A DNA stretch of 32,000 nucleotides from NCBI GenBank assembly GCA_048886185.1, contig JBHLKY010000022.1, positions 21,864 to 53,863 on the forward strand, written 5' to 3'. Positions 2,858-10,463 of this stretch are shown piece after piece. The notes below the pieces were generated by a model. That model was given only the letters and a program-made list of their open reading frames with translations. It had not been told where the DNA came from and did not search any database. A program made the translations under genes and the position numbers. Position 1 is the first letter of the stretch, and each line of letters starts with the position of its first letter. The stretch comes from Candidatus Hermodarchaeota archaeon (GTDB taxonomy: Archaea; Asgardarchaeota; Heimdallarchaeia; Hodarchaeales; Hodarchaeaceae).

Positions 2858-3691
2858 TTAATAATATCCTAGTGCTCCTTTTTGTCGTGTACGATATTCA
2901 AAGTAATTGAAGACTAGAATTCCTAGAATCAACCACACTACGTTTAAAAACATTATATATATGAGAATTTCAAACCAATATGCACTAAATCCTTGGAGTA
3001 CTCCCTCACGGAATCCCTCAACACCCCAAGTTATTGGTGAGATGAAAGATAATGGTTTTAGAAGAGCAGGTAATACTGCTAATGGAAAAAAAGCCGGAGC
3101 TAATAAATTCATGAATCCATCCATGAAAAGGACAAACTTCCAAGCTTGTTTCATTGCAAGAACCAATCCAGATATGATTAGGGAAAATCCTAACAATGAA
3201 ATCGTAGCAAAAAACAAAATGAAAATCATGGGTAGAATATTGAGAACATTTATTTGTAATCCATATAGAAAATATACACCACCAATCTGCAAAAAAAATG
3301 CCAATACTGACATGGACAGACCAAAAAGTGTATTACCAAAAATTATTGAAAATCGGGAGGCAGGGGTCATATAAATGCTAACTAATGTTCCAGTCCATTC
3401 TTCCCGTCGAATACCCATTGCTCCCATCCAATAAATGCGTGTTAGAATAGCCATTGAAGCTGAACCGAAAGTTAAGAATAAGATAACATCACTTGTTGTT
3501 GCATACTTGGCTAGTATCTCACTTTCACGACCACCTACTAAGGCTTGTCCATAGATGATAACAGGAAGCAAGAAAATCAATGGTTCAGATACAAAGTAGA
3601 GAAAAGTTAATGGATATGCTAATCTGATTCTCCAATATTTAATCATAAGTTGCCAAGAGCAATTAAGCTCAAACCAAATGCGAGATATCAT
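2858..3691 (-). CDS. ABC-2 type transporter permease
   Basis: About 6 hydrophobic segments, an EEWTGTL motif (ABC-2 'E...GTLE') and FFPLAVLPALL...SPITW. It is third in a tightly packed minus-strand trio. Confidence 0.88.
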   Translation of the reverse strand: MISRIWFELNCSWQLMIKYWRIRLAYPLTFLYFVSEPLIFLLPVIIYGQALVGGRESEILAKYATTSDVILFLTFGSASMAILTRIYWMGAMGIRREEWTGTLVSIYMTPASRFSIIFGNTLFGLSMSVLAFFLQIGGVYFLYGLQINVLNILPMIFILFFATISLLGFSLIISGLVLAMKQAWKFVLFMDGFMNLLAPAFFPLAVLPALLKPLSFISPITWGVEGFREGVLQGFSAYWFEILIYIMFLNVVWLILGILVFNYFEYRTRQKGALGYY

Positions 3692-3693
3692 TG

Positions 3694-4521
3694 CTAATAG
3701 GCTCCTAATGATCCTTTTTCACGTGAGAATTCCTCCATCTTTGTAAAGAGAAGGACTCCAATCATCCACAACACAATATCTAGAATTACTAGGCTAATTA
3801 TAAAGATCATTGGTTCTAATGCGGGGTACATTATTGTTTCTGGCATTGTTAATTTCCTAATAACAGAAAGACCTAATGTAAAGGGAATTGTAAGAGAAAT
3901 TACTCGAATCCAGCCTGGCAGAGCTTGCAAACTGTACCGAACTGGTGTGATGAGATGCATCCCAGTTTCAATCATTTCAGTTAGTGTTCCTGGTTCTTTG
4001 AAGACTATAATTATACCTGCCATCAAAACACCAAATCCATACAAACCTACTATTGTGAGGATTAAGACACCAACAGATAAAATTAGTCCTTGCCAAAGTA
4101 GATGTATTTGTAGAAAGACACTTATAATGGTAAATTGAATCAAAATATTGATTGATGCCCATATTGTTTCCGAAATACTTGTACCAATTAGTATATCCAC
4201 ACGACTCGTGGGCGTTGTCCATAGTACTTCCAGTGTTCCAGATTCTTGTTCCCAACGAATGGCATTTCCTGCTCCCCATAAAGCTGTAGACACAAACATG
4301 AAGAGAATTGTCCCTACAACAATAAAGCTCAGAAAATCTTCACTTCCAGTAAGTTCTGCGAAGTTTTCACTAGTAGTTCCCCCAACAAATGCTATTCCTT
4401 GAAGTATGAGTGGTGTTACCCACATTACTGGCATAACTGCCCAAAACAGCAAGTCGAACTTGTATCGAGACATATGAATTATATTTTTATAGATAATGGC
4501 TTGAATTGTCGCAAGTTTCAT
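3694..4521 (-). CDS. ABC-2 type transporter permease (start revised from 4578 to ATG 4521)
   Basis: EQESGTLEVLWTTP motif and multiple TM segments. The ATG at 4521 follows the ATPase stop (4523-4525) by 1 nt and has GGAGG upstream. Confidence 0.88.
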   Translation of the reverse strand: MKLATIQAIIYKNIIHMSRYKFDLLFWAVMPVMWVTPLILQGIAFVGGTTSENFAELTGSEDFLSFIVVGTILFMFVSTALWGAGNAIRWEQESGTLEVLWTTPTSRVDILIGTSISETIWASINILIQFTIISVFLQIHLLWQGLILSVGVLILTIVGLYGFGVLMAGIIIVFKEPGTLTEMIETGMHLITPVRYSLQALPGWIRVISLTIPFTLGLSVIRKLTMPETIMYPALEPMIFIISLVILDIVLWMIGVLLFTKMEEFSREKGSLGAY

Positions 4522-4522
4522 T

Positions 4523-5527
4523 TCAAGTGTCCTCCTTGATATTTGATAATCCCCGTCCAGTGAGTTTAATGAAAGCATCTTCTAATGTAGGAGTTTCAAC
4601 ATCAATACTTTGTATCGAGACATTCTCTTCTTTCAATTTTTCTAAAACTGAGAGCATAATTTGTGAGCTGTCTTGTGTATGAATGTGAGTAAGATTGTTT
4701 TGTGTATAAACTTCAAGGATCCCAGGAATATCATGAAAGATTCTATTTGGAAATGAATCAGTTGTTTTAATTTTAATAACTTCGTGTTCTTTGATCTGTA
4801 ATTTAAGTTGTTCAGGAGTGGCGGTATCTATGATTACTCCGTTATCAATTAGAGCTACTCGATCAGATAACTGATCAGCTTCAGCCATATAATGAGTGGT
4901 TAACAGAATAGTTTTTCCCTCTTCCTTCTGTAGAATATTTTTTATGAATTGTCTCAAATCACGAGCAAAGGAAGGATCAAGGCCTAATGTTGGTTCATCG
5001 AAGAGTAATACTGGTGCATTTGATATTAAAGCTCTAGCAAAATTAATTTTCATTTTCATTCCAGTACTATATTTTTCAACGCGTTCATGAGCTTTATTTA
5101 GAAGTTGCATTTGTTTAAGTAAATGCCTTGCACGATCATGGGCTTCAGTTTTACTAAGGCCATACATACGTCCAAAAAATATCAGGTTTTCCAATCCAGT
5201 CATTTTCCAATAGGTACTCCGTTCACCACCACCAATAGTAGCCCCGAAACTAGCACGTGCTTTAGAACTTTCTTTTACAACATCGAAACCATTGATTTTT
5301 GCTATACCATGATCCGGAATAACAATTGTAGTTAGTATTTTCACTAAAGTAGTCTTACCAGCTCCATTAGGACCAAGTAAACCAAAAATTTCTCCTTTAC
5401 TGACACAGAGATCTACTTTATCGAGAGCTTGGACTATCTCTTTTTTCCGATTACGCTTAAAACGCGAGCCTCTTGTTTTCTCAAATCTTTTGCTTATTTT
5501 AGACACATAAATTGGAAAATTCTGCAT
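4523..5527 (-). CDS. ABC transporter ATP-binding protein (DrrA/ABC-2 family)
   Basis: Walker A GPNGAGKTT, signature YSTGMK, Walker B LLFDEPT, H-loop TTHYM and a C-terminal PTLEDAFIKLTG. Confidence 0.95.
   Translation of the reverse strand: MQNFPIYVSKISKRFEKTRGSRFKRNRKKEIVQALDKVDLCVSKGEIFGLLGPNGAGKTTLVKILTTIVIPDHGIAKINGFDVVKESSKARASFGATIGGGERSTYWKMTGLENLIFFGRMYGLSKTEAHDRARHLLKQMQLLNKAHERVEKYSTGMKMKINFARALISNAPVLLFDEPTLGLDPSFARDLRQFIKNILQKEEGKTILLTTHYMAEADQLSDRVALIDNGVIIDTATPEQLKLQIKEHEVIKIKTTDSFPNRIFHDIPGILEVYTQNNLTHIHTQDSSQIMLSVLEKLKEENVSIQSIDVETPTLEDAFIKLTGRGLSNIKEDT
4531..4535 (-). promoter_or_regulatory. Shine-Dalgarno site (GGAGG) for the permease start at 4521
   Basis: GGAGG lies 9 nt upstream of ATG 4521, inside the end of the ATPase gene. 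Confidence 0.65.
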
Positions 5528-5975: not shown

Positions 5976-8900
5976 GTGTTTAAAATGAGTTATTTCAACA
6001 TAGCTTTCCGTAATGTAAAGCGAAATAGATGGAGAAGCTTCTTATTAATATTAGGTATCACCATGTCTGTTGCATTGGAAACGGGAATAGCTATTACAGT
6101 TGATTCATTATATGAAAATTTCATTACGGAGCAGAGATGGAATAATTATACTGATCTTAGTATTCATTCTACGATTAATGGGACGACTCCTGAAGAAATG
6201 AAAGATGTAGCAAATACAGTTCAGTCGATATCAGGAGTTCGTAGGGCTAGTACAATCATAACTCATATTTATTCTAATGAAACACTTGAATCTATAGAAT
6301 ACAACTTCAGTATTGACTATAACGTCATTATATATGGTTGTCAAACAAATCATCCTGATTTTCAGAATATCAATGTAATTAATGGAAATCGAAGTTTAAA
6401 TACCAACGAGGTAATGATTTCGAATAGCCTCGCTAAAATGTTTGGAACTGTTCCTGGCCAGAACATTAATCTATCACGATTCATTCCTGATATGTCTGGA
6501 TCAGTGAATATTAAGGGAATTATAAAAGACGAAAATAATTTTGGAAACTTATTTGGATATCTTCTTATCCTTGTTAATTTAGATTTTTTATATGAAAAAT
6601 TGTTAGAAGCCAAATGGGATTTTGAAATTGAATGTGTGGTTGAGATTGCTAATTTAATGGAAATTGATGAAGTCACTACAAGAGTAATGAATGAGCTTGG
6701 AGAAAATTTTCTGGTTATGCGGGGAAAGATCATTTCAGAATTAGCGAAAATGGGAATCACCTCCTATCAATCAGCAATGAACATTATATTATTAGCTTCT
6801 TTTGTTGTAGCTGTCCTATTTTTAACAAATATATTAGCAATAAATGTTAATGAGCGAAAAAAGGAATTTGGTATTTTAAGATCGATTGGTACATCTAATA
6901 CACAAATCATTATAACACTTGGCATTGAGATCTTAATTTATTGTATTTTAGGGAGTCTTTTAGGAAGTATCCTTGGGTTATTTTTCTCAGTGTTTTACTT
7001 AACGATATTTAATCAAACTGAAGAAATAATAACTATAACTGAACTTGTGATAAGCCCTATCTCCTTAGGTTCCGCTTTTTTTTCAGGTATTTTTATATCT
7101 CTTGTCGCTGGGAGCTACCCCGTTTTACTAGCTATATTCTATCCACCTGTTCAAAACATCTATTATCAACAACGAACTATGGAACGTAAATGGAGAATAA
7201 CATGGAAATATTCATTTTTAGCTGGCTCTATCTTAAGTCTAATTGGGATTCTTGGTACATACTTAATTGGACCGTCACAATTCTTATCTTTTGAAATAAT
7301 TTCTTTCCACTTTATTGCTGTTGTTTTAACACTGATTGGGACACTCTTAATACTAACTGGATTACTAAGTTTTTTACCAAAGGTTAGCAGGTATTTATTC
7401 TGGCACTCGGCTGTTTCCAAAATAATTTCATCACGAAATGTTAAACGTGAGGCGTCTAAGTCATCAATCACCATTCTTACCAGTGCTGTTGCATTGTCTT
7501 TCATCTTGATAATTGGAGTTGTATCAAGTGCATTAGTTGAAGCTGTTCCAGATTTTTATAATAACCAATTTGGGGGAATTGATATTATTGCAGAATGTTA
7601 TGATGGACAAGAGCTCCCAATTTCATTGGTAGATAAATTAAAGAAAAATGGAGACATACATCAAGTCAGTTTTATACAAGAGCACTCAACCAGTGTAGCT
7701 ATGAGTCAAGACAGGATTAATATTTTTGGAATTAGTCCAAAAGAATTTGAAATATTTATCGATCCAATTCTAGCTCAAACCAAACAAAATCTAATAACAA
7801 TGTTAAATACTACTGAACATGGAGTTATTATTAGCGATCTTCTATTAAAAAAACTAAATGTAGATCTAGAAGAAGAAGTTCAAATCATTATAAGAGAAAA
7901 TATCACAGTAACCCTTGTTATTAATGGAATTGTAAGAGGAAATCCATTTATTCACAATGGTATGTATTTATATTTATCTAATACTCTATTTAATCAGCTT
8001 TTCCCTTCTGAAAGTGAACCTGTGGCAAAATGGTTCGTTATTGCTACAGAAGACGAAGTTAATGAAAAGAACTTAACAAGAAGCCTTATGAGATCATATG
8101 AATTCAATCGTGTATCTTCGATAGATTATTTTTCAGGAGTGATCGAGAAAACAATTCAAAGACAAGCTGCGTTGTTCCAAATATTATTCTTAGAATCATT
8201 CTTCCTAGTTGGATTAGCTCAATTTGTGTGTATCTTAATTTCAACATTGAGGATGGAAAGAGAATTAGGAATCATGCGCGCAATGGGACTGTCAAAAAAC
8301 GGAGTTATTTCAATCTTTTTGGCAGAAAGTACATTATTAGGAGTTACTGCCGTAATTATTGGTATTGTAGAAGGTGTTATTGGATCATATCTCATGCAAT
8401 GGTACATTTCTACAAGTATTCCGATCAACGTGAGTTTTGATCTAAGATTGATCTTACTCTGGGTAGGAGTTACATTTTTAATAACTATTATTAGCACTTT
8501 GATTCCAAGCTATCGCTCTTCAAATAAAAGTGTTGTCGCAGCGATCAGCGGAAGAGCTATCCCTGAAATAAAAGTTCCAGATATTGAAGTATTTGAAGAG
8601 ATTGTGTTAAATGTTGAAAATCTGAGAGGCTACTATCGGGGATCATTTGGAATAGTGCATGGAGTTGATGATGTCTCCTTTACCATGAAAAAAGGTGAAA
8701 TTGTAGGTCTTGCTGGAGAATCTGGTTGTGGAAAGTCCACATTAGCAGAACTCATTACAGGAACACCCAGGCCTCTCCTACACTATGAGGAGGGGATAGT
8801 ACGCGTTGATAAATACAATATATACAATATCAGAAATGAGGAGCTACGAACCAAGGTCAAATGCAAATTGATGGCATATGTACCTCAAGCTTCAATGGAT

Positions 8901-9590
8901 TCCTTGAATCCTGTGAAAAGGATAATTGATTTTATCATGGATGTAGTGAAAGAACGTACTGGTCAAACAAGATCTAAAGGAGAAATCTATAAACTTGCTG
9001 CAGACCATTTTGAAAGGGTAGGTTTGGATAAATCAGTTCTGAAACACTATCCCCATGAACTTAGTGGGGGCATGAAACAACGTGTCATAATTGCAATCTC
9101 TACTTTATGGAATCCTCATCTCTTGATAATAGATGAACCAACAAGTGCATTAGATGTTACATCTCAAAAACAAATGATAAAAATGCTTTCTGAGTTGAAA
9201 AAAGAGCAGATTATTCAATCAATCTTGTTTGTGTCACATGATATTGCTACTCTCAGACAATTATGTACTAGATCCATAATCATGTATTGTGGTGAAATTG
9301 TAGAGATTGGTACAATGGACGATATTATTAACAATCCTCTTCATCCTTATACTACTTTACTCATTTCATCTATTGTAAGATTCAATCCAGATGGTACTCG
9401 CTCTTTTGCGTTGAAGAGTATTCCAGGAAATCAACCTGACTTAAGAGCTCCTCCCCCTGGGTGTCGCTTTCACCCTCGCTGTCCTCAAGTGATGACTCAT
9501 TGTAAATCTTATGAACCCCCTACAGTAGAGATTTCTGTCGAAGGGAGAATGGTTAAGTGTTGGTTATTTCATGAGTATGATAAGCATTAA
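5976..9590 (+). CDS. Fusion of a duplicated FtsX/MacB-family permease (about 10 TM, two extracytoplasmic domains) and a C-terminal DppD/OppD-type ABC ATPase with a 4-Cys tail
   Basis: FtsX motifs appear twice (NERKKEFGILRSIG and RMERELGIMRAMG), as do N-terminal RNVKR motifs. The ATPase begins near 8601 and has GESGCGKST (8715), YVPQASMDSLNP, ELSGGMKQR, IIDEPTSALD, VSHD, HPYT and GCRFHPRC...C...C. The start is GTG 5976 or ATG 5985. Confidence 0.88.
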   Translation: MFKMSYFNIAFRNVKRNRWRSFLLILGITMSVALETGIAITVDSLYENFITEQRWNNYTDLSIHSTINGTTPEEMKDVANTVQSISGVRRASTIITHIYSNETLESIEYNFSIDYNVIIYGCQTNHPDFQNINVINGNRSLNTNEVMISNSLAKMFGTVPGQNINLSRFIPDMSGSVNIKGIIKDENNFGNLFGYLLILVNLDFLYEKLLEAKWDFEIECVVEIANLMEIDEVTTRVMNELGENFLVMRGKIISELAKMGITSYQSAMNIILLASFVVAVLFLTNILAINVNERKKEFGILRSIGTSNTQIIITLGIEILIYCILGSLLGSILGLFFSVFYLTIFNQTEEIITITELVISPISLGSAFFSGIFISLVAGSYPVLLAIFYPPVQNIYYQQRTMERKWRITWKYSFLAGSILSLIGILGTYLIGPSQFLSFEIISFHFIAVVLTLIGTLLILTGLLSFLPKVSRYLFWHSAVSKIISSRNVKREASKSSITILTSAVALSFILIIGVVSSALVEAVPDFYNNQFGGIDIIAECYDGQELPISLVDKLKKNGDIHQVSFIQEHSTSVAMSQDRINIFGISPKEFEIFIDPILAQTKQNLITMLNTTEHGVIISDLLLKKLNVDLEEEVQIIIRENITVTLVINGIVRGNPFIHNGMYLYLSNTLFNQLFPSESEPVAKWFVIATEDEVNEKNLTRSLMRSYEFNRVSSIDYFSGVIEKTIQRQAALFQILFLESFFLVGLAQFVCILISTLRMERELGIMRAMGLSKNGVISIFLAESTLLGVTAVIIGIVEGVIGSYLMQWYISTSIPINVSFDLRLILLWVGVTFLITIISTLIPSYRSSNKSVVAAISGRAIPEIKVPDIEVFEEIVLNVENLRGYYRGSFGIVHGVDDVSFTMKKGEIVGLAGESGCGKSTLAELITGTPRPLLHYEEGIVRVDKYNIYNIRNEELRTKVKCKLMAYVPQASMDSLNPVKRIIDFIMDVVKERTGQTRSKGEIYKLAADHFERVGLDKSVLKHYPHELSGGMKQRVIIAISTLWNPHLLIIDEPTSALDVTSQKQMIKMLSELKKEQIIQSILFVSHDIATLRQLCTRSIIMYCGEIVEIGTMDDIINNPLHPYTTLLISSIVRFNPDGTRSFALKSIPGNQPDLRAPPPGCRFHPRCPQVMTHCKSYEPPTVEISVEGRMVKCWLFHEYDKH

Positions 9591-9653: not shown

Positions 9654-10463
9654 GTGCAATACTTGATAAATGATAATTTTGTTCTTGTTATGGACATGGA
9701 CGGAACTTTGATTAAAACAGGTGAACAACTTAATGATGAACTTGCAATTCTACTAAAACCCTATATTGATGAATTTCGTTTGATAATAGCTACAGCACGG
9801 CATCCCCTTGGAGTAAAATTTGTTTTACAGGAATTTTTTAATTTTGTGCCTACTATCTCTTTGAATGGAGCTGCTCTTCACCTAACGAGTTGGACAAAAT
9901 TCGATAAAGTTATCTTTTTTCCAAGCAAAGTTGTTAGTGAGATCAAAGAAGAACTATCATCGTTTAATGTTGTTACAACATACTATGGAACAGATTTCTG
10001 GGCAGTATCAGATTATTCTCCAGGAGTTGATAGAGAGGCGAGAGTAACTGGTATGACGCCTGTTTTATGGGAAGAAAAGTTCCTAGATGGCTGTATAAAG
10101 ATACTAGTAATAGATGAAAGAAATAAGATAAAAAAGGTGCAAGAATATGTCTCCAGAAATCTCAGCAATCATGTCCAAGTTAATACTTCCCATGAAACTT
10201 ATTTGGAAATCTCCCCGTATTCTGTAAAGAAATGTTTATTTCTTCCGGATCTGTTGAAAGAGTTATTCTATAGAAACTATCGAACCATCAAAGTAATATT
10301 TATTGGTGATTCTGAAAATGACATCCACTGTGCAGAAGTTGCCAATGAGGCTTGGACTTTTTCAACATCCCCAAAAAGATTAAAAGATCTCTCTTCAGGA
10401 ATTCTAGACCATGCTAATGGCAAAGGAGTAAAAAAATTTCTCATTCGGTTAAATAAACAATAA
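9654..10463 (+). CDS. Cof-type HAD-IIB sugar-phosphate phosphatase
   Basis: Motif I DMDGT, motif II IATAR, SLNGA, a cap ending YLEISP, a motif III Lys and motif IV GDSEND. Confidence 0.88.
   Translation: MQYLINDNFVLVMDMDGTLIKTGEQLNDELAILLKPYIDEFRLIIATARHPLGVKFVLQEFFNFVPTISLNGAALHLTSWTKFDKVIFFPSKVVSEIKEELSSFNVVTTYYGTDFWAVSDYSPGVDREARVTGMTPVLWEEKFLDGCIKILVIDERNKIKKVQEYVSRNLSNHVQVNTSHETYLEISPYSVKKCLFLPDLLKELFYRNYRTIKVIFIGDSENDIHCAEVANEAWTFSTSPKRLKDLSSGILDHANGKGVKKFLIRLNKQ

Follow-up and report, generated by a model that had tools for sequence, protein, structure and literature searches.

To our knowledge, in the characterised ATP-binding cassette (ABC) systems each fold class of the membrane domain works with its own family of ATPases. 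A gene of a Candidatus Hermodarchaeota archaeon, of the order Hodarchaeales, raises the question of whether nature has joined parts of two such classes, and of how the product would work. The gene lies in a stretch of 32,000 nucleotides of contig JBHLKY010000022.1 (the window; G000:C22:21864-53863), as one open frame on the forward strand at window 5976..9590, with 1204 aa counted from a GTG at 5976. The probable start is the ATG at 5985, which gives 1201 aa and agrees with the database form P0002. The gene encodes a double-FtsX permease with a C-terminal ATPase of the DppD/OppD type. It thus joins a type VII permease to the ATPase of a type I importer, and the combination was fixed once, in one genus of Hodarchaeales, from a duplicate of the local dppD. 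The mechanism and the partner ATPase of the fusion are inferred.

Domain architecture and identity of the ATPase

All Pfam matches along the protein are above their cut-offs: MacB_PCD (aa 21-203, 48.3 bits), FtsX twice (PF02687, 101 bits with a cut-off of 25.5), ABC_tran (aa 898-1057, 92.7 bits) and oligo_HPY (aa 1109-1176, 74.2 bits). The second extracytoplasmic domain is matched weakly by Pfam in homologues, and its secondary structure in the AlphaFold2 (AF2) model is mixed alpha/beta, like that of the first. Hydropathy gives ten transmembrane (TM) helices and places the C-terminal ATPase in the cytoplasm. A prior sequence-only reading of this DNA had two FtsX modules ending at about 8555 and, after a linker of some 15 aa, a full ATPase. 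The two FtsX matches and the end of the permease agree with it; the linker measures 17 aa, and all the ABC motifs follow. The Walker A, Q-loop, signature, Walker B and H-loop motifs are intact in all members, fused and free, of the clade to which the nucleotide-binding domain (NBD) belongs.

In NCBIfam, the ATPase scores best on the models for OppD, DppD and OppF (219-198 bits; OppD 219, DppD 202), and DevA, at 101 bits, is the only model of the MacB/LolD type among the 25 matches listed. The equivalog cut-offs (575 bits for OppD, 541 for DppD) lie well above these scores, and the membership is at the level of the family only. The D-type is favoured over the F-type, with 201.6 bits for E. coli OppD against 173.4 for OppF, and 185 for DppD against 172 for DppF. 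The fused NBD does not belong to the LolD/MacB/FtsE family of ATPases that goes with type VII systems. Foldseek aligns the ATPase with DppD of T. tengcongensis (4fwi; target TM-score 0.94, root-mean-square deviation 1.9 A, 40% identity) and also with E. coli OppD and DppD. We did not find a gene for a permease of the OppB/C type (BPD_transp_1) in the window around the fusion.

The four cysteines of the C-terminal tail (C1163, C1169, C1176 and C1195) all align with cysteines of 4fwi. In E. coli DppD, C284/C290/C297/C315 are the ligands of a [4Fe-4S] cluster, and the spacing in the fused protein (C-x5-C-x6-C-x18-C) is close to that of these ligands; E. coli DppBCDF falls apart on Cys-to-Ser change or oxidation (PMC12136057). 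Should the tail hold an oxygen-labile cluster like that of E. coli DppD, the fused protein would be sensitive to redox conditions. Since the free parent DppD carries the same four-Cys tail, the tail is inherited from DppD and no innovation of the fusion. The NCBIfam scores and the cysteine alignment thus bear out an importer-type NBD with a four-Cys tail, as initially proposed, and Pfam, NCBIfam, 4fwi and Foldseek concur on a fusion across ABC classes.

Fold of the permease and its coupling helices

The AF2 model (aa 5-1204, from an alignment of 58 rows) has a mean predicted local distance difference test score (pLDDT) of 84.6 and a predicted TM-score of 0.60, with the linker disordered. For the permease half, the closest Foldseek match is E. 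coli YbbP (9ge6_A, 908 aligned columns), followed by BceB, MacB and LolC. In YbbAP, two YbbA serve one YbbP of ten TM helices, in which the outer domains lie between TM1-2 and TM7-8 and the coupling helices between TM2-3 and TM8-9 (PMC12646458). The archaeal permease has the topology of type VII, with ten TM helices, an outer domain in each of the TM1-2 and TM7-8 intervals, and TM5-6 as linker. In coupling helix 1, the residues R294, E297, G299 and G305 are invariant in 28 family members, the fused ones included; in coupling helix 2, E761, R762, R768 and G771 are at least 90% conserved among 28 sequences.

Because both coupling helices are conserved, the fused permease probably needs a second ATPase. 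The sequence-only reading had argued that one NBD per pseudo-dimeric permease calls for another, in trans or by oligomerisation. The need agrees with the 2:1 ratio of YbbA to YbbP (PMC12646458) and with the two conserved helices.

Junction and selection on the two halves

The same reading had left room for a stop or misassembly at the junction (8540-8610), and for homologues in which the two halves are always separate genes. Neither is seen. Contigs from Logan, of two other studies, bridge the junction without insertion or deletion: a contig of 157 bp from an estuary metagenome (8498-8654) has no differences, and a contig of 179 bp from a third study (8437-8615) has seven substitutions and no gaps. 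A 3.3-kb contig of the probable source sample also spans it. The X7 contigs start within the linker and do not bridge the junction. Eight clusters at 90% identity, with 60-100% identity and the same four Pfam domains, come from NCBI, JGI, ENA and Logan and include a single-contig genome of 4.9 Mb (CP070695.1); their linkers are homologous and equally long.

Between orthologues, the ratio of nonsynonymous to synonymous divergence (dN/dS, after Nei and Gojobori) is 0.09-0.12 in the ATPase part and 0.10-0.22 in the permease part. In the least saturated pair, with a dS of 0.6-0.75, the values are 0.10 and 0.16, respectively. Both halves are under purifying selection. The catalytic motifs are all intact across 57-80% identity, and the four cysteines are conserved. 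At the 3' end of the fused gene of G015 (L033 ~9064-9300, G015:C1), the genome copy reads N and the Cys tail is unreadable. A C-terminal truncation of that orthologue was considered and rejected, as the translation has X at that place and P0009, which is nearly identical, is complete.

A misassembled junction, or a neutral read-through fusion with an unused ATPase, would fit the rarity of the gene, which is confined to one genus. Against this stand the independent contigs across the junction, the eight clusters from four data sources with the single-contig genome among them, and the dN/dS of about 0.1 with every catalytic motif kept. We give such an origin practically no credence: assembly artefact and decaying accident are excluded.

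Origin of the ATPase

Within its own genome, the fused ATPase is best matched by a free DppD of 329 aa (75% identity; C22:12233-13219), about 15 kb upstream. This DppD belongs to a locus with the order GH3 - SBP_bac_5 - DppB - DppC - DppD - DppF - LVIVD - GH94 - GH17-like, present also in G008, G010 and G012. The DppF of this beta-glucan locus has 266 aa and no Cys tail. The fused NBDs are 72-78% identical to the DppD of the DppB/DppC operon, and the fused NBD is 38% identical to the second ATPase gene of the local Dpp operon.

Of the separate trees of the two halves, which the sequence-only reading had advised, that of the NBDs (maximum likelihood, 59 sequences) agrees with this source: one clade (98/99) unites the nine fused NBDs with eight free DppDs of the genus, and it is nested within free DppDs from Asgard and other anaerobes. 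In the permease tree, the halves from fused proteins are monophyletic (100/100), with P0010 as sister, which has a TM-rich tail in place of the ATPase. The NBD of the fused P0007 (L040 1750-5349) groups with the free DppD P0273 (82% identity, support 95/94); P0273 may be of the same or of another metagenome-assembled genome. Two independent fusions were considered on account of this pairing and rejected, given the homologous junction, the monophyletic permeases and a dS of the P0007 NBD to other fused genes that exceeds the dS of its permease. For the same reasons, we read the P0007 NBD as the product of gene conversion between fused and free copies after a single fusion. The trees thus indicate that the fusion arose once, within one GTDB genus. 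We take it as almost certain that the fusion is genuine, under selection and descended from the local dppD. The donor gene can still be recognised at a distance of 15 kb, which makes the swap recent enough to be studied.

Distribution

The architecture, for which a search had also been advised at the outset, was found in this genus only, within the scope of the searches below. Among 40 relatives, the permease family (at E<=1e-80) was found only in the GTDB genus of the window: 20 of the 21 other genomes have it, each with 1-6 matches, of which some are fragments. G000, G003, G010 and G015 have the fused form. Of 1.84 billion cluster representatives, searched exhaustively with phmmer, one had both halves; very distant FtsX-DppD fusions, below about 315 bits, would escape this search. 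Among the longer proteins bearing this NBD, there is no second architecture with FtsX and oligo_HPY. Long proteins outside the lineage (P0142, P0178, P0183 and P0251) were rejected as candidates: they are OppC-OppD-OppF or multi-NBD fusions with no FtsX. Within the limits of our search, the literature gave no match for FtsX together with oligo_HPY, and neither another protein nor a paper with the same pairing of ABC parts was found. The one listed paper that names Asgard archaea, FtsX and ABC transporters together concerns PSP systems.

Unfused paralogues and Opp-type ATPases

The 59 loci of the permease family in 22 genomes were crossed with oligo_HPY matches (150 of 173 listed). At least 24 of the 59 have an oligo_HPY ATPase within 10 kb, where chance would give about 1-2 loci (at ~4.2 clusters per 4-Mb genome), and at least 14 have one within 3 kb. 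In the group of ~900 aa, the gene map of G008 has a co-directional row OppB-OppC-OppD-OppF-158aa(TM)-FtsX2, and in G003, G005, G007 and G019 pairs of oligo_HPY matches just ahead of the permease point to such a row as well. The gene maps of G000 and G008 show the group of ~1250 aa convergent with OppC-OppD-OppF-135aa, and gene positions indicate the same arrangement for G010 and G014. The idea that FtsX-linked Opp operons lack a binding protein, which the FtsX outer domains might replace, is not supported at the C4 locus of the window's own genome, where an SBP_bac_5 gene lies ~1.5 kb beyond OppB.

A conventional double-FtsX permease of the same genome (C37) has a LolD-type ATPase (230 bits) directly upstream. 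Among 12 loci of the present family inspected gene by gene, a LolD-type ATPase gene of their own is absent at 11. The exception is G001 (L037 3907-5476, G001:C5), where two LolD-type genes and a 959-aa gene lie about 2 kb upstream of a ~900-aa paralogue. These LolD-type genes stand behind a divergent gene, there is no OppBCDF there, and they may either break the Opp linkage or form a system apart.

If the fusion acts as a "Rosetta stone" for these linkages, it suggests that ATPases of the Opp/Dpp and not of the LolD/MacB family power this FtsX family of Hodarchaeales in its entirety. A stronger form, which we hold possible yet on balance doubtful, is that this expanded type VII family dropped its LolD/MacB motors and shares or borrows the Opp/Dpp ATPases of adjacent type I importers of oligosaccharides or peptides, with the fusion as the covalent form of the arrangement. 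If true, one pool of ATPases would couple mechanical work outside the cell to import, and this would be the first evidence of a natural exchange of ABC motors between fold classes. The linkage of the unfused paralogues to Opp ATPases and the local, recent dppD duplicate as source of the NBD are new here.

Several members of the family show other peculiarities. After the conserved end ...AAISGR, P0019 (G000:C21, L029 6312-9866(-)), P0020, P0010 and L028 4848-8591 have a multi-TM extension of ~300 aa, which matches no Pfam family and sits where the fused group has its ATPase. This permease family seems to take on added modules readily at its C-terminus. In the FtsX-linked Opp operons, OppB and OppC are of unusual length (749, 495 and 799 aa; L035 14137-16386(-), L035 12620-14107(-) and L028 11118-13517(-), respectively), with large non-Pfam regions before or inside the BPD_transp_1 core. 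In G015, all that is left upstream of the intact ~900-aa paralogue is a C-terminal OppF fragment (oligo_HPY only) at L036 7400-8062 (G015:C1 ~1289.4-1290.1 kb, single-contig genome CP070760.1), at a site where relatives carry a full OppBCDF operon.

Gene neighbourhood

The features of the fused gene and the genes downstream of it are collected in Table 1. The fusion, the HAD gene and the GH161-type gene are co-directional, with 52 nt between the latter two. The order fusion-HAD-GH161-245 aa is kept in G003 and G010 and rearranged in G015. Elsewhere, the fused P0008 has GH94-like, ROK/GlcN-isomerase and GH2 genes as neighbours, and P0007 a GH17. Since the orthologues keep such neighbours and the unfused paralogues adjoin OppBCDF operons, the role of the fusion is probably tied to the use of beta-glucans or other glycans. 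The sequence-only reading had put forward glycan handling or redox-gated transport: the glycan part is strengthened by the GH161 match at 839 bits and the recurrence of the context in orthologues, and redox gating is speculative, given a tail that is merely inherited.

Table 1. Coordinates (window numbering) of the parts of the fused gene and of the genes downstream
Feature	Coordinates	Strand	Basis or remark
Whole fused gene	5985..9590	+	Double-FtsX permease, linker and DppD-type ATPase
TM1, aa 22-40	6039..6095	+	Hydropathy; AF2 helix
Extracytoplasmic domain 1, aa 41-269, MacB_PCD	6096..6782	+	Pfam PF12704, 48.3 bits; AF2 model mixed alpha/beta
FtsX module 1, TM2-TM4, aa 270-387	6783..7136	+	Pfam FtsX; contains coupling helix 1
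Coupling helix 1, aa 289-310, NERKKEFGILRSIG	6840-6905	+	Between TM2-3
Linker helices TM5-TM6, aa 414-464	7215..7367	+	Hydropathy, AF2; as in YbbP and BceB
TM7 (aa 498-516) and extracytoplasmic domain 2 (aa 517-735)	7467..8180	+	Hydropathy, AF2
FtsX module 2, TM8-TM10, aa 736-843	8181..8555	+	Pfam FtsX; contains coupling helix 2
Coupling helix 2, aa 755-779, RMERELGIMRAMG	8238-8312	+	Between TM8-9
Permease end SYRSSNKSVVAAISGR, aa 844-860	8505-8555	+	Family-conserved ...AAISGR, last residue aa 860
Linker of 17 aa, aa 861-877	8556..8606	+	Low pLDDT; length equal in all fused orthologues
ABC ATPase core, aa 878-1108	8607..9299	+	Pfam, NCBIfam, 4fwi alignment
Walker A GESGCGKS, aa 914-921
Q-loop, aa 968-973
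Signature LSGGMKQR, aa 1029-1036
Walker B LLIIDEPTS, aa 1049-1057			With catalytic Glu
H-loop, aa 1086-1090
oligo_HPY C-terminal domain, aa 1109-1204	9300..9587	+	Pfam PF08352, 74.2 bits; 4fwi alignment
Cys tail C1163-x5-C1169-x6-C1176-x18-C1195	9462-9560	+	Inside oligo_HPY domain
Cof-type HAD-IIB phosphatase	9654..10463	+	63 nt downstream of the fusion; syntenic in G003, G010, G015
GH161-type beta-1,3-glucan phosphorylase homologue, 1084 aa	10516..13770	+	839.5 bits to PDB 9qqk_A "gh161 phosphorylase"
Soluble protein of 245 aa	13872..14609	+	No Pfam or NCBIfam family

The 1084-aa homologue has no Pfam match; its match to 9qqk_A runs over nearly the full length, and GH149 (6hq6) matches weakly. 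By this similarity, the protein would be an archaeal GH161. Homologues of the 245-aa protein with 51-54% identity adjoin unfused ~900-aa permease paralogues, and proteins of about this length with 51-71% identity are neighbours of the fused gene cluster and of unfused ~900-aa paralogues (L001 8766-9503(-), L036 11527-12255(-) and L037 10734-11462(-)); a role as partner or regulator in the cytoplasm is possible. The genes directly upstream of the fusion encode a DrrA-type ATPase and two ABC-2 membrane proteins (window 2858-5527(-)), divergent here and in G003, co-directional in G010, and 80-88% identical in G003. This set looks like a separate exporter kept beside the fusion.

Mechanism and alternatives

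The fold and the conserved coupling helices favour mechanotransmission. The tethered DppD-type NBD would dock on the TM8-9 coupling helix of FtsX, and a second NBD on the TM2-3 helix. The second NBD would be either a free ATPase of the Opp/Dpp family, supplied in trans, or that of another copy of the fusion. The ATP-driven closure of the NBD pair would be transmitted across the membrane to the two extracytoplasmic domains of the Porter/Sabre type. The work of these domains would be mechanical and extracellular, as in MacB, LolCDE, FtsEX, BceAB and YbbAP-TesA, with no solute passing through a pore. Such work might be to extract a glycan or glycolipid substrate, or to present it to surface glycanases or an importer. 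We put the chances of this mechanism, with a glycan-linked role, at about even.

Several observations weigh against this account and its extension to the family. In G015 (a single contig) and G003, which have the fusion, the 266-aa DppF of the beta-glucan locus has no close orthologue, although other genes of the OppF type (~40% identity to DppF) are present in both. An operon with cytoplasmic GH161 and HAD enzymes fits an importer and not an extracellular machine. The alignment of fused with free NBDs contains no universal substitution specific to fused forms, and hence none that would signal an NBD adapted to the interface with the coupling helix. No ABC ATPase lies near the paralogues P0019, P0020 and P0010. 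The Opp operon upstream of a ~900-aa paralogue in G015 has decayed to a fragment and the permease is intact, so that an adjacent OppDF is not strictly required by that permease. All the genomes are congeneric, and the counts of linked loci represent few independent synteny events, perhaps three or four associations. A complex prediction of aa 1-480 with the free 266-aa DppF scored 0.00 without controls, which is evidence neither way.

With two fused chains paired through their NBDs, a self-sufficient homodimer would have 20 TM helices and two NBDs, and the TM2-3 helix would be structural only. The full canonical motif set would give two competent sites, no second ATPase gene is conserved beside the fusion, and the absence of a close DppF orthologue from G015 and G003 would be accounted for. 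However, both NBDs sit under one ten-TM permease in YbbAP and BceAB, coupling helix 1 is invariant in the fused proteins, which argues for its use, D-type Opp/Dpp ATPases normally partner an F-type subunit (PMC12136057), and G015 and G003 have other OppF-type genes; we find the homodimer unlikely. The lack of fused-specific changes in an NBD so close to DppD, with a Dpp operon 15 kb from the fusion, could also mean that the fused NBD replaces DppD under DppB, and so ties FtsX as an accessory to a DppBC-DppF supercomplex. The gene conversion read from P0007 and P0273 would then reflect interchangeable sequences, and the unfused paralogues in or beside OppBCDF operons would fit as well. This reading is quite improbable: neither the D nor the F subunit of that locus has a detected orthologue in G015 and G003, the conservation of both FtsX coupling helices points to docking on the FtsX permease itself, and there is no known precedent.

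The operon also speaks for a true importer, a type VII scaffold repurposed for the uptake of beta-1,3/1,4-gluco-oligosaccharides to feed GH161 and HAD: the catabolic genes are cytoplasmic, co-directional and tightly spaced (HAD after 63 nt, GH161 after a further 52 nt), their glycan-catabolic context is conserved, and the NBD is of importer descent. Yet no type VII ABC system is known to carry substrate across its own membrane (PMC5985334, PMC12646458). In addition, the fold match is to YbbP and BceB, no binding-protein gene lies beside the fusion, and a complete canonical importer for the same sugars is found 15 kb away; we regard uptake by the fused protein as very improbable. Returning to mechanotransmission, the account as a whole, of a fusion maintained in one lineage, of local dppD origin, acting by mechanotransmission and linked to oligosaccharides, has in our view somewhat better than even prospects.

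Significance

The fusion is a natural, selected exception in which a type VII permease is joined to the motor of a type I importer. An unaltered DppD-type NBD would apparently be able to serve an FtsX-type coupling helix, which bears on the modularity of ABC systems and on the engineering of chimeric transporters. It also provides a hypothesis for the many "orphan" Asgard FtsX permeases without an ATPase gene of their own, and points to an ATP-driven step at the cell surface in the use of beta-glucans by Hodarchaeales, so far unexplored. Hodarchaeales are placed closest to eukaryotes in some phylogenomic studies.

Comparison with known systems

With YbbAP(-TesA) and BceAB, the archaeal protein shares the ten TM helices, the positions of the outer domains, the TM5-6 linker and the coupling helices between TM2-3 and TM8-9, at a sequence identity to YbbP of only ~13%. 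YbbP and BceB employ two free ATPases of the LolD/MacB family (YbbA and BceA), whereas the archaeal NBD is fused at the C-terminus, belongs to the Opp/Dpp family and carries the oligo_HPY four-Cys tail. As in MacB, an FtsX permease with a MacB_PCD outer domain and an ABC ATPase are on one polypeptide. In MacB, however, the NBD is N-terminal, of the MacB/LolD family, on a single four-TM module that forms a homodimer; in the archaeal protein, it is C-terminal, of the DppD type, on a duplicated permease of ten TM helices.

With the DppD and OppD of type I importers (4fwi; E. coli DppBCDF, 8z1v; M. tuberculosis OppD, 8j5q), the fused NBD has in common the motifs, the oligo_HPY domain and the four cysteines at the positions of cluster ligands, with 40% identity to 4fwi. 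Those ATPases occur as free subunits or in fusions with another NBD or with OppC, and dock on the EAA loops of BPD_transp_1 permeases, whereas this NBD is joined to FtsX. Shared ATPases of the MsiK/MsmK type serve several sugar ABC importers. The likeness is that one ATPase family would serve several membrane modules, as suggested here for Opp-type ATPases and FtsX; the known sharing, in contrast, stays among type I importers and never crosses ABC fold classes.

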